DNA of 64,000 bases. Source: Dehalococcoidia bacterium (GTDB lineage Bacteria > Chloroflexota > Dehalococcoidia > UBA2979). A program made the translations under genes and the position numbers. This document shows positions 9,138 through 33,572 of the stretch, piece by piece. Numbering within the stretch: position 1 is the first letter of the stretch; the number at the start of each line of letters is the position of its first letter. Location: assembly GCA_964291495.2 (NCBI GenBank), contig OZ219872.1, forward strand, positions 320,001 to 384,000, written 5' to 3'. Below the pieces are notes generated by a model that saw only the letters and a list, made by a program, of their open reading frames with translations, was not told where the DNA came from and did not search any database.

Positions 9138-9214
9138 GGCCCCGTAGTGTAGCGGTCTAACACGCCACCCTGTCACGGTGGAGATCGGCGGTTCGAATCC
9201 GCTCGGGGTCGCCA
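9138..9214 (+). tRNA. tRNA-Asp(GTC)
   Basis: Acceptor GGCCCCG/CGGGGTC, anticodon arm CCACC-CTGTCAC-GGTGG, GTTCGAATC T-loop, encoded CCA. Confidence 0.97.
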
Positions 9215-20409: not shown

Positions 20410-20484
20410 TGGCACCCTCGGCAGGATTCGAACCTGCGCACCCGGCTCCGGAGGCCGGTGCTCTATCCCCTGAGCTACGAGGGC
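20410..20484 (-). tRNA. tRNA-Arg(CCG)
   Basis: Reverse complement GCCCTCGTAGCTCAGGGGATAGAGCACCGGCCTCCGGAGCCGGGTGCGCAGGTTCGAATCCTGCCGAGGGTGCCA; anticodon CCG. Confidence 0.97.
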
Positions 20485-29785: not shown

Positions 29786-30700
29786 ATGGCGCGCGAGTCA
29801 CAGGGCCCCGAGGACACCGTCGGCGCGCTGCTGCTGGAGGCGGCGCGCGAGCTGGTCGCCGCCTGGGGCGCGGAGAGCCTCGATGAGGCGCGGCTGGAGG
29901 TCGACCTGCTCTACGGGGAGGCGGCGGGCCTGAGCCGCGCGCAGGTGATCGCGGCCGGCCGCGACACGCCGACGCCGGAGGCGCGCGCACGCTTCGAGGC
30001 GCTGCTGCGGCGCCGCATGGCGCGCGAGCCGCTGGCCTACATCCTCGGGCGCCGCGAGTTCCACGGCCTGACCTTCGAGGTCGGCCCCGGCGTGCTGATC
30101 CCGCGCCCGGAGACGGAGACGCTGGTCGAGGCGGCGCTGGCCGCGATCCGCGAGCACCCGAACGCCCGCCGCATCGTGCGCGTCGCCGACGCCGGCACCG
30201 GCAGCGGCGCGGTCGCGATCGCGGTCGCGCGGCATGCGCCCTCGGCGAAGGTCTTCGCGACGGACGCCTCGACGGAGGCGCTGGCCTGGGCGGGCCGCAA
30301 CCGCGCGCGGCTGGGGCCGATGGAGCGCGTCGTGCTGCTCGCCGGCGACCTGCTGGAGCCGATCGGCGAGCCGCTCGACGTGGTCGCCGCGAACCTGCCC
30401 TACATCCCGACCGACGAGTACGAGCGCCTGCCGGAGGAGATCCGCGCCGGCGAGCCGCGCCTCGCCGTCGACGGCGGCGACGATGGCCTCGAGCTGGTCC
30501 GCCGCCTCGTCGCTCAGCTCCCGGACCACCTCGCGGACGGCCCCGTCGCCGTCCTGCTCGAACTCGGCGGCGGCCAATCCCCCTTCGTCGCCGACTGGCT
30601 CACTTCAGCCCTCGACGGCGACGACGCCGGCGTGACTGTCGAGGTGCACCGCGACCTGGCTGGCAACCGACGGGTGTTGGAGGTGCGGCGGGGGTACTGA
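29786..30700 (+). CDS. prmC: Release factor glutamine methyltransferase
   Basis: EPLAYILG, VLIPRPETE, D.GTGSG, NLPY, DLAG..R; follows prfA. Confidence 0.95.
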   Translation: MARESQGPEDTVGALLLEAARELVAAWGAESLDEARLEVDLLYGEAAGLSRAQVIAAGRDTPTPEARARFEALLRRRMAREPLAYILGRREFHGLTFEVGPGVLIPRPETETLVEAALAAIREHPNARRIVRVADAGTGSGAVAIAVARHAPSAKVFATDASTEALAWAGRNRARLGPMERVVLLAGDLLEPIGEPLDVVAANLPYIPTDEYERLPEEIRAGEPRLAVDGGDDGLELVRRLVAQLPDHLADGPVAVLLELGGGQSPFVADWLTSALDGDDAGVTVEVHRDLAGNRRVLEVRRGY

Positions 30701-31418: not shown

Positions 31419-32570
31419 CTACCCCGGCATCTGCTGCGCGAGCTGGTAGATCTTCCCCTCCGTCTTGATCGAGGGGGCGATGACCATGCGCGCGGCGTGG
31501 AACTCGGCGATGGACTGGGCGCCGCAGGTGGCCATCGAGGTGCGGAGGGCGCCGACGAGGTTCTCGGTGCCGTCCGTGCGCGAGGTCGGGCCGGAGAGCA
31601 GCGTGTCCAGCGTGCGCGGCTGGCCGACGTGCACGCGCACGCCTCGAGGCAGCTCCGCGTGCGGCGTCGCCATGCCCCAGTGGTAGCCGCGGCCCGGCGC
31701 CTCCTTCGTCGCGGCGAAGGGGGAGCCGATCATCACCGCGTCGGCCCCGGCGCAGATCGACTTCGAGAGGTCGCCGCCGGTGCGGATGCCGCCGTCCGTG
31801 ATGATCGGCACGTAGCGGCCCGTGCGCTCGTGGTAGAGGTCGCGCGCGTAGGCCGTGTCCAGCGTCGCGCTCACCTGCGGGATGCCGATGCCCAGCACCT
31901 CGCGCGAGGTGCAGGCCGCCCCCGGCCCCACGCCGACGAGGATGGCGTGGATGCCCGTCTCCATCAGCTCCAGCGCCGCGCCCGTGTCGACCGTGTTACC
32001 GACGAGCACGGGAACGGGATCGATCTGCTCGACCAGCTCGTCGAGGCGCAGGCCGCGCAGCGATCGGGAGACGTGGCGCGCCGTGGTGACGGTGGATTGG
32101 ACGGCGAAGAAGCTGGCTCCGGCCTCCTTCGCGACGGGGGCGAGGCGCTTCGTGTTCTGCGGCGTGGCGCTCACGGCCGCAACGCCGCCGAGCTTGATGA
32201 TCTCCTCGATGCGCCTCCCCACGAGCTCGTCGCGGATCGGCTGCGAGTAGACGTGCTGGATGATCTCGGTCGAGTGATCGAGGTTGGCGGCGGCGATCTC
32301 CTCGTAGATGCCGTCGGTGTCCTCGTAGCGGGTGTGCAGGCCCTCGAGGTTGAGGACGGCAAGCCCGCCGGCCTTCGTGAGCGCTGCCGCGAAGGAGGGG
32401 TCGACGACGGCGTCCATGGCCGAGGCGAGGATCGGGACGGGGAAGGAGTGTGCGCCGAGGGTGAAGGTGGGCTCGACGAGGTCTGGGTTGGTGGTGACGG
32501 CGCCGGGGACGATCGCCACGTCGTCGAAGCCCCAGGCGCGCTCGAGGCTCTTGCGCTCTACTGCCGTCAT
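31419..32570 (-). CDS. guaB3: GuaB3-family IMP dehydrogenase-related protein
   Basis: FDDVAIVPG, SAMD.V, VLNLEG, VG.GPGAACTSR.VLG.G.PQ, DGG, no CBS domain. Confidence 0.93.
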   Translation of the reverse strand: MTAVERKSLERAWGFDDVAIVPGAVTTNPDLVEPTFTLGAHSFPVPILASAMDAVVDPSFAAALTKAGGLAVLNLEGLHTRYEDTDGIYEEIAAANLDHSTEIIQHVYSQPIRDELVGRRIEEIIKLGGVAAVSATPQNTKRLAPVAKEAGASFFAVQSTVTTARHVSRSLRGLRLDELVEQIDPVPVLVGNTVDTGAALELMETGIHAILVGVGPGAACTSREVLGIGIPQVSATLDTAYARDLYHERTGRYVPIITDGGIRTGGDLSKSICAGADAVMIGSPFAATKEAPGRGYHWGMATPHAELPRGVRVHVGQPRTLDTLLSGPTSRTDGTENLVGALRTSMATCGAQSIAEFHAARMVIAPSIKTEGKIYQLAQQMPG

Positions 32571-32787
32571 CGCCGTGGTCCCTCCCCCGTCACGCTCAGG
32601 TGACGCCGTGCGGCGGGGACGGCAACCGGGGAGAGTGCCTGGAGGAGCAGATACACAAAGACCCCGCCACGGGGGAGGGGTCCTGCTCGGGATGCACCCG
32701 AGGTCGTCTGTTGCCAGGCTGTCGCATGGGTCCCGCCACGGTCACCCTGCTTTTGAGAATGGTAGGGCCACCCGGATCGGGGGTCAA
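32571..32787 (-). promoter_or_regulatory. guaB3 promoter (TTGACC-N17-TACCAT) and long structured 5' leader, candidate riboswitch/attenuator
   Basis: -35 at 32782-32787, -10 at 32759-32764; nested helices and a terminator-like GACCCC..GGGGTC-TTTGTGTAT. Confidence 0.6.
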
Positions 32788-32846
32788 CGCCGCGCCCCTC
32801 GAAACGCGCGATCCGGGCCTCCGGCGGCGACCACACAGCCCGAGGG

Positions 32847-33572
32847 CTAGCGCACCTCGCGCGCGTACCAGCCCGTCCAGACCGCCTTACGGCGGCGCAG
32901 CAGCGCGATGAACAGCGGGTTTGTCCAGACCAGCACCCGCCACAGAGGCCACTTGTCGAAGCGGCGCGTCGAGGGCCGGACGCGCGGCTGGCGGATGAAC
33001 GCGACCTTGCGTCCCGTGTCCCGCGCGAGGCGCTTGAGGCTCCAGAAGAAGTCGACGTCCTCGCCGATCCACGCCGTCTCATCGTACCCGCCGGCCTCCT
33101 CGAAGGCGGACGCTCGGGAGAACTGCGCGGCGCCCTGCGCCATGCCCGTGAGCCGCGCGAGCAGGCGCCAGGCGCGCAGGTAGAACCTCGCGAAGCGGCG
33201 CTGCGGCCGGTAGTCCACGTCGACGGCGCCGCCGAGGCAGCTCGGGTCGCTCAGCGCCGCATGGATCGCCCGGAGGAACGTGGGCGGCACGATCACGTCC
33301 GCGTCGACGAAGACCAGCACCTCGCCCCTGGCATGCCGCGCGCCGGTGTTCCGCGAGCGCGCGATGCCCTGCTCCGGCTCGTGGACCACCGTCGCGCCTC
33401 CCACCAGCGCCACCGCCGCGGTCCGGTCGCTGCTGTTGTTGTCGACGACGATGGTTTCGACCGCCCCGTCGATGCGGTCGAGCAGGCGCGTTGCGGACTC
33501 CTCGATCGCATCGAGGGTCGCGGAGAGGTACTCCTCCTCATTGAAGGCCGGTACGACGATCGTGAACCTCAT
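32847..33572 (-). CDS. Glycosyltransferase family 2
   Basis: VVPAFNEE, VVDN.S.D.T, RN.GA, FVDAD, GG....ED, S.RRF. Confidence 0.92.
   Translation of the reverse strand: MRFTIVVPAFNEEEYLSATLDAIEESATRLLDRIDGAVETIVVDNNSSDRTAAVALVGGATVVHEPEQGIARSRNTGARHARGEVLVFVDADVIVPPTFLRAIHAALSDPSCLGGAVDVDYRPQRRFARFYLRAWRLLARLTGMAQGAAQFSRASAFEEAGGYDETAWIGEDVDFFWSLKRLARDTGRKVAFIRQPRVRPSTRRFDKWPLWRVLVWTNPLFIALLRRRKAVWTGWYAREVR

Follow-up and report, generated by a model that had tools for sequence, protein, structure and literature searches.

A conserved guaB3 leader with a premature terminator in an uncultured Chloroflexota family, tentatively a ribosome-mediated attenuator

The pyrBI leader of Escherichia coli is the closest described system to the element analysed here, the leader of guaB3 on the minus strand (32787-32571) of a 64,000-nt stretch of DNA, called the window in what follows, from a Chloroflexota genome (G000, 3.08 Mb, 93.7% complete). 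At pyrBI, a promoter-proximal short open reading frame (ORF) reaches or crosses an intrinsic terminator in front of a nucleotide-biosynthesis gene, a hairpin or pause element lies upstream of this terminator, and read-through is expected when a ribosome is close behind the polymerase; the guaB3 leader, as read from its sequence, resembles it in all these respects (pyrBI in part after PMC4824070). The same study reports that termination in E. coli falls from ~90% to <10% when a stop codon is placed 5 bp ahead of a terminator, with no such effect beyond 27 nt, and that a terminator near the beginning of a frame is functional unless the ribosome is coupled to the polymerase by pause sites, as at the pyrBI leader (PMC4824070). 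The two systems differ in pathway, which is purine here (IMP dehydrogenase-type) and pyrimidine there, and in phylum. Moreover, no U-rich pause tract is present in the guaB3 leader, other genera carrying alternating G-pyrimidine tracts instead, and in the window a layer of pairing between an anti-Shine-Dalgarno (anti-SD) segment and the Shine-Dalgarno sequence (SD) is added.

Other known systems share parts of this arrangement. In attenuators of the trp and his type, the structural gene is likewise preceded by hairpins, a terminator and a short ORF whose peptide is poorly conserved. However, no run of regulatory codons was seen in the guaB3 leader, no convincing 2:3 antiterminator can be defined, and the stop codon abuts the terminator in several genera, so that completed translation would favor read-through and not termination. 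Purine, ZTP, ykkC/PRPP/ppGpp and SAM-I riboswitches likewise combine a 5' leader and a terminator platform on a nucleotide-metabolism gene, but no covariance model of these families matches here and no multi-helix aptamer core is conserved across genera. Finally, translation of an upstream ORF can unfold a helix that sequesters an SD (translational coupling); the ORF of the window stops 25 nt short of the guaB3 ATG, having crossed the anti-SD segment, although the end of this frame varies within the genus.

The guaB3 element is a real, conserved and undescribed cis-regulatory leader with a premature terminator. We tentatively read it as an attenuator of transcription that acts in cis, most likely through a leader peptide and its ribosome as at pyrBI, a reading that we consider quite possible. 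The features of the window on which this reading is built are the following.

32759..32787, minus strand: promoter-like site, with the -35 box TTGACC at 32787-32782, a 17-nt spacer and the -10 box TACCAT at 32764-32759
32724..32750, minus strand: stem-loop H1, with an outer stem GCA/TGC, an inner stem GGGT/ACCC and a 12-nt loop
Between H1 and H2, minus strand: linker of 21 nt
32686..32702, minus strand: hairpin H2, CTCGGG-TGCAT-CCCGAG, -9.4 kcal/mol, z -4.0
32651..32683, minus strand: terminator-like hairpin T, with the stem GGACCCC/GGGGTCT, an 11-nt C-rich loop and the tail TTTGTGTAT
32596..32727, minus strand: candidate leader ORF (P0001), 43 codons from the ATG at 32727-32725 to the TGA at 32598-32596
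Between T and guaB3, minus strand: spacer of 80 nt containing a C-rich segment
32626..32636, minus strand: this C-rich anti-SD segment, CTCTCCCC, paired with the SD in minimum free energy (MFE) folds
32580..32588, minus strand: SD of guaB3, GGGGGAGGG, kept across the genus
32570, minus strand: ATG start codon of guaB3, 9 nt 3' of the SD
31419..32570, minus strand: guaB3, the putatively regulated gene, 383 aa, TIGR01304 at 390.1 bits (cut-off 342.1)

Several of these elements had been described in an earlier note made from the letters of the window, which proposed an unrecognised structured leader or attenuator on guaB3, possibly with a variant aptamer fold. Its promoter, TTGACC-N17-TACCAT, is the only promoter-like site in 32300-33100, the mean of 50 shuffles being 0.0, and transcription would start in the A run at 32754-32751. 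Its terminator-like hairpin was picked up independently by a terminator scan (32683-32651, tail given as TCTTTGTGTAT), the match consisting of CCCCGTGGCGGGG plus TCTTTGTGTA, that is, a G+C-rich stem-loop followed by a T-rich tail as in intrinsic terminators; the full stem has 7+2 pairs and a stability of -14.6 kcal/mol (z -2.1). T with its tail occurs a single time in the 3.08-Mb genome, and a generic genome-wide repeat was ruled out for this reason. The helix CTCGGG/CCCGAG of H2 is also upheld, since its stability was reached by none of 200 shuffles and it covaries. H1 alone has -11.0 kcal/mol and is not clearly beyond shuffles (z -1.0); its loop contains a G-rich SD-like motif, GGCGGG, and a 3-bp mini-stem, and the ATG of the short frame lies in its 3' strand. 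Neither the whole 211-nt leader (z +0.83) nor the 104-nt RNA ending at T (z -0.66) is more stable than its shuffles, only H2 and T standing out; the individual elements are real, and there is no globally unusual fold.

The 104-nt RNA folds as H1, H2 and T at -40.8 kcal/mol, with a pair probability of 0.97 for T. When the 3' arm of T is removed, the fold reaches -30.0 kcal/mol and the GCGGG of the H1 loop pairs with the CCCGT of the T loop. This alternative pairing explains the duplication reported in the earlier note, where CCGTGGCGGG occurs twice in the leader (32741-32732 and 32672-32663); the shared 8-mer GTGGCGGG is kept at both places in 15/17 sequences of the genus, the second copy being GCGGCGGG in the other two. 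Because the terminator fold outweighs the alternative, termination would be the default state and an active agent would be needed for read-through. Downstream of T, the proposal that CTCCCC sequesters the ribosome-binding site (RBS) of guaB3 is supported by the MFE folds of the 80-nt spacer of the window and of at least 10 of 13 genus spacers, and, as read from the alignment, the two sides change together between subclades of the genus (CTCCCC/GGGGAG and ATCCCC/GGGGAT).

Conservation was assessed first within the genus. GuaB3 was found in 41/41 sampled relatives. Among the 18 loci of the same genus, 17 have complete upstream DNA; the remaining one (L014) ends at a contig edge and shows only the 3' half of the leader. 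Promoter, H1, H2 and T are present in 17/17 genus leaders on the same strand as guaB3 and at a constant distance from it. Counted over 16 genomes, the most divergent one being excluded, the 5' block of the leader, within which H1 lies, is invariant in 36 of 36 columns, the linker in 4 of 16, H2 in 9 of 19, T in 19 of 25 and the spacer in 19 of 81; within guaB3 itself, 42.7% of third-codon positions and 89-91% of first and second positions are invariant. In the three-hairpin structure 98.1% of 425 cells pair, against 33-58% in slid controls, and three pairs show two-sided changes, one in H1 (T-A to C-G in L018) and two in H2 (T-A/T-G/C-G and C-G/G-C), values reached by 0-1 of 500 shuffles. As judged from these alignments, conservation of the leader is far above chance.

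Three further helices of the earlier note did not hold up in the genus: GAGCAG/CTGCTC lacks conservation, CAGG/CCTG cannot form in 2-3 of the 17 sequences and competes with the better-supported H1, and GCCTGG/CCAGGC is retained only in the six closest genomes. The element is single-copy, since a covariance model (R1, derived from the 17 sequences of the genus and too narrow) gave it 132.8 bits and the next best place in the 3.08-Mb genome 15.8 bits; the matches of R1 comprise the genus, weak matches driven by the terminator and one doubtful look-alike of H1 in another genome (G043). A GT2 glycosyltransferase gene lies upstream in 9/18 loci of the genus and in 0/12 loci of other genera, and because this neighbor comes and goes, guaB3 is the stable partner of the element.

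The invariance of the 36-nt block, the position of a terminator in the 5' leader of a nucleotide-synthesis gene, and the duplicated 8-mer with its alternative pairing of H1 and T loops speak for a metabolite-binding riboswitch of a new class, in which H1 and the linker, perhaps with H2, form an aptamer for a purine-pathway ligand that decides on the formation of T. No known family matches the leader either. Rfam 15 was searched at gathering thresholds, where the window yields two tRNAs only, and then at E<=10 on 32500-32900, which gave two matches, neither to a riboswitch family: TCV_Pr on the plus strand, with 17.2 bits against a gathering threshold of 40, and CRISPR-DR33 beyond the leader at 32875-32900 of the minus strand, with 13.5 bits against 39. 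Twenty leaders from 14 genera gave three matches of 18.6-20.5 bits, all far below gathering. The resemblance of the 5' part to a SAM-I core, suggested in the earlier note, was thus not borne out at E<=10, and its statement that the leader fits no purine, ZTP or ykkC family agrees with the absence of such matches at the same threshold. Known aptamers are normally conserved between genera at the distance where the protein is 70-80% identical. In contrast, the sequence, length and detectable pairing between the motifs of the leader are not conserved between genera whose GuaB3 proteins are 70-80% identical. In addition, H1 shows one compensatory change only, it is not clear that the 5' arm of T is captured in the alternative fold, and a riboswitch leaves the conserved ATG and SD-like motif without a role. 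We therefore regard a riboswitch as unlikely, and what stands of the original proposal is an unrecognised, conserved, structured cis-acting leader or attenuator on guaB3 with an anti-SD segment, without the variant aptamer fold.

The comparison was extended to the whole family, where guaB3 was located in 94/99 genomes and 60 further upstream regions were taken in; 82 leaders were examined. The organisms are named as Chloroflexi or Dehalococcoidia metagenome-assembled genomes (MAGs) in the records from a pattern scan. A script looked for a TTGAC-N16-19 promoter, a start codon (ATG or GTG) with a G-rich SD-like motif ahead of it, and a CCCC/GGGG hairpin with six or more pairs. The full architecture is present in 66/82 leaders, and the promoter in 49/60 of those from the rest of the family (scored by regular expression). 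Among the 16 failing leaders, 11 have no promoter match, nine of these being from two low-G+C genera with quite different upstream regions, and five have no hairpin by the strict rule, although one of them (L005) plainly has T with one changed base. Across genera the constants are a GGAAATC-like start of the transcribed region (GGAAATC in most genera, CAAAAGC in the window), a GGCGGGG or other purine-rich motif, the ATG, the hairpins and a terminator tail of the TGCGT type, and a hairpin followed by an alternating G-pyrimidine tract recurs ahead of the terminator; the sequence between these motifs varies freely. The H1 architecture is also found in one leader of another genus (L118). Because few motifs are constant and the sequence between them varies, an attenuator with a leader ORF fits better than an aptamer. 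A leader of this predicted architecture is present in most high-G+C genera of an uncultured, partly sponge-associated Chloroflexota family.

Other aspects of the leader vary between genera. Terminator tails are T-poor in other genera (TCTGCGTTAT-like), and their strength is uncertain. Genus-wise RNAalifold predictions for other genera gave inconsistent long-range pairings, except for the terminator and the hairpin preceding it. Tandem terminator-like hairpins in the same orientation lie between promoter and guaB3 in the genera g3 (L019, L094, L100) and g123 (L042, L047, L099). GuaB3 appears to start ~20-25 codons earlier in most other genera than in the window (e.g. L095, L093, L122), and the additional N-terminal part, which is conserved, opens with ATG/GTG GTC ACG AGC GAG CG directly after the terminator and the RBS GGGGTGGGG; this extension is lost in the genus of the window, which has an 80-120-nt spacer in its place. 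The motif CCGATC lies in the promoter spacer (window 32782-32764), is common to the genus of the window and to g3 (L019/L048/L050), and could serve a DNA-binding regulator as operator.

In many genera the guaB3 RBS GGGGTGGGG and start codon follow the terminator by only ~10-25 nt, which leaves no room there for a second promoter, and this spacing argues strongly for a cis-acting leader and against an independent small RNA (sRNA) gene. Such a gene, consisting of promoter, ~100-nt transcript and terminator with guaB3 as a mere neighbor, would account for the presence of an own promoter and terminator, and the invariant single-stranded loop and linker could serve as its seed. One weak H1 look-alike (22.3 bits) also occurs away from guaB3, upstream of a PadR gene in a Chloroflexia MAG. 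However, no promoter of guaB3 lies downstream of T, the RBS follows the terminator at once in many genera, and the element is obligately linked to guaB3, always in one orientation, whereas its other neighbor changes. The look-alike itself may be due to chance, as the 23 matches of the pattern scan outside the genus, besides that of G043, are close to the chance estimate (~22). An independent sRNA is, in our view, very unlikely. The scan of genome contigs returned 41 loci, namely 17 of the genus, the one of G043 and these 23 others, which lie, on visual inspection, in coding sequence of unrelated bacteria and were taken as chance matches. The G043 look-alike (L038 1501-1604, identical to L060) has the same letters in the outer and inner stems and a mini-stem changed on both sides; it is followed by two hairpins and lies upstream of genes for a PadR-family regulator and a solute-binding protein, not of guaB3.

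The position of the short frame relative to the terminator favors the ribosome-mediated attenuator. A corresponding start codon after a G-rich motif is present in 66/82 family leaders and looks like a translation start, and SD-like motif and ATG are the best-conserved features of the leader family-wide. The start triplet varies at its first base only (GTG in L018 and in the genus g4 and, by manual alignment, TTG in L025). T lies between this start and guaB3, and no promoter intervenes. In the window the frame crosses H2, T and the anti-SD segment. Within clusters its length is constant despite many substitutions: 25 codons with the TGA in the terminator loop in g126a (7 of 7 genomes), 19 codons with the stop 6 nt before T in g126b (3 of 3), 20 codons with the stop 4 nt before T in g121 (5 of 5), 16 codons with the stop 20 nt before T in g116 (7 of 7, TAG being replaced by TAA in one), 19 codons with a TGA overlapping the stem in g6 (3 of 4 genomes), and 19-20 codons with the stop 3-4 nt before T in g118/g127 (3 of 4). 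In g6, g121, g118/g127, g126 and g3 the stop falls inside T or 0-6 nt ahead of it, and the frame runs through T in g1, g25 and g120; in all of these it crosses the terminator or comes within the effective distance given in PMC4824070, so that a ribosome could interfere. In 65 leaders, no in-frame stop precedes the first CCCC/GGGG hairpin past the start by more than 21 nt. In the genus of the window, the frame ends 25 to 32 nt before the guaB3 ATG in 11/17 genomes, overlaps it as ATGA in 3/17 and ends just after T in 3/17.

A number of observations weigh against translation of this frame, and so against the attenuator that depends on it. A coding signature of the peptide was not found: pN/pS (nonsynonymous to synonymous polymorphism) is 0.88 in frame, against 0.99 and 0.88 when the frame is shifted, and third positions of the leader frame show no excess. 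Stops counted between start and T in the three frames are 4/8/5, a depletion that is not significant (P=0.28), and at ~70% GC open frames are expected by chance. In the genus of the window, indels put the frame past about codon 7 in all three phases. No regulatory-codon pattern or shared codon enrichment was seen when leader ORFs were compared across clusters. As an SD, GGCGGG is imperfect, with only 4 nt between it and the ATG, and the 36-nt invariant block exceeds what a plain SD and ATG would need. A pairing between the 5' end and the codons that follow the ATG was considered and rejected, cognate combinations being no better than non-cognate ones (p=0.50). Finally, the alternative fold falls 10.8 kcal/mol short of the terminator fold, and its hold on the 5' arm of T is not clear. 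The ORF is therefore a candidate leader ORF, whose translation is an inference.

Another explanation is an attenuator under the control of a protein, by comparison with PyrR, TRAP and BglG. An RNA-binding protein would act on the invariant H1, on the repeated GTGGCGGG, or on both, and promote or block T. The 5' block is conserved as an exact sequence rather than as a structure, the 8-mer is displayed at the tops of two hairpins, and T is so much more stable than any alternative fold that read-through needs an active factor. Nevertheless, no candidate regulator gene is linked to the element, whose neighbors vary, and the repeat of the 8-mer is confined to the genus of the window. We regard this explanation as unlikely, a little more so than a riboswitch.

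Under the attenuator mediated by the ribosome, RNA polymerase would start at the single strong promoter and transcribe H1, H2 and then T. By default T would form and the transcript would end as a ~100-nt RNA; guaB3 would be made only on read-through of T, because there is no other promoter between T and the gene. The decision would lie with the ribosome on the short leader ORF, which, when trailing the polymerase closely, would cover the 5' arm of T and suppress termination. In the window the same ribosome would also melt the anti-SD:SD helix and so open the RBS of guaB3. H1, which contains the start region of the ORF, would set the frequency of ribosome loading, and H2 would act as a pause that synchronises ribosome and polymerase, a role that a hairpin with an alternating G-pyrimidine tract would have in other genera.

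The signal may be the supply of guanine nucleotides acting on the speed of the polymerase, as UTP does at pyrBI. When GTP is scarce, the polymerase would linger at the hairpin and at pyrimidine-G pauses, the ribosome would catch up, mask the terminator and open the guaB3 SD. That the leader senses guanine nucleotides on the pyrBI principle is a specific proposal to which we give rather little weight. In a bolder variant of it, the invariant H1 would itself be a new, small aptamer and would gate the translation of the leader ORF. Nucleotides could also be sensed by the polymerase directly and without a leader peptide, through effects of the start site or the initiating nucleotide at the conserved GGAAATC-type start or through GTP-sensitive pausing or termination at tails of the TGYG type. 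The Y-G step matches the consensus pause motif, and this match, the conserved first transcribed bases (GGAAATC or CAAAAGC) and the hairpins that, in several families, have an alternating G-pyrimidine tract or a TGCGT-type tail behind them would suit such a mechanism. On the other hand, the genus of the window has no G-pyrimidine tract upstream of T, the conserved SD-like motif and ATG are left unexplained, and the case is drawn purely from sequence; direct sensing appears highly improbable to us.

The regulated step is of interest because of the type of enzyme encoded. The predicted product of guaB3 is a GuaB3-family relative of IMP dehydrogenase (IMPDH), and in a profile search its gene is the sole full-length match to PF00478 (IMPDH/GMP reductase) in the genome, eight further matches spanning profile positions 192-279 only. 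No canonical guaB with CBS domains was found in the 93.7%-complete assembly. In two studies, the cyanobacterial GuaB3 is described as the essential IMPDH, without the CBS pair of canonical GuaB (PMC13273366), and the activity of mycobacterial GuaB3 as unknown (PMC9790621). As GuaB3 is here the sole IMPDH-family gene product and belongs to a type without the CBS pair, RNA-level control of a CBS-less IMPDH is plausible, and a nucleotide is a plausible candidate signal on biological grounds. The leader bears on the question of how GuaB3-only organisms control entry into GTP synthesis. If our reading is true, it would be the first RNA-level control described for the IMPDH step with guaB3 within the full-text literature searched, in which nothing was found on a guaB3 leader, on leader-peptide attenuation of IMPDH or on a guaB riboswitch in Chloroflexi (supplementary files being outside its scope). 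In the version that senses GTP, RNA-level feedback would replace the nucleotide allostery that is missing from CBS-less IMP dehydrogenases of the GuaB3 type. Moreover, those who search for attenuators and riboswitches gain a defined candidate whose coordinates are given and of which ~80 natural variants exist, and in vitro tests of it need no culture of the organism.

Further families of the class carry other designs of guaB3 leader. Many have short 5' untranslated regions, some have long leaders with terminator-like hairpins, and one has a long-range anti-SD helix. In another family, with 59% G+C, a frame of 39 codons is kept in 4/6 genomes of the genus g12 (L181, L193-L197). Its ATG lies only 5 nt past the -10 box, two terminator-like hairpins fall within it, and its TAA directly precedes the SD of guaB3; of the two other genomes, one with a 1-nt insertion close to the end of the frame has 42 codons, and in the other the frame continues into guaB3. 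This frame may be leaderless, judging from its distance to the -10 box, and it lends weak support to the maintenance of a leader ORF. In the family f53 (L170, L172, L185, L187), a ~200-nt guaB3 leader contains a conserved CCTCCGCCGGCC complementary to a segment that ends in the SD (GGCCCGGCGG ... GGAGG) and looks like an SD-sequestering switch of another design. In the family f23 (L154, L157, L159, L162, L163), a conserved hairpin (AGCGCGGC ... GCCGCGCT) with TGCGTT-type tails lies 40-60 nt before guaB3; the tails resemble the terminator tails of the family of the window, and the stems differ.

Around guaB3, the G+C content of 71% gives rise to many artefactual ORFs, long and overlapping, on both strands. 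Elsewhere in the window, a gene on the plus strand (29786-30700) codes for the release-factor glutamine methyltransferase PrmC (TIGR03534, 231.4 bits), and two tRNA genes lie at 9138-9211 on the plus strand and at 20413-20484 on the minus strand (Rfam tRNA, 64.5 and 65.9 bits).

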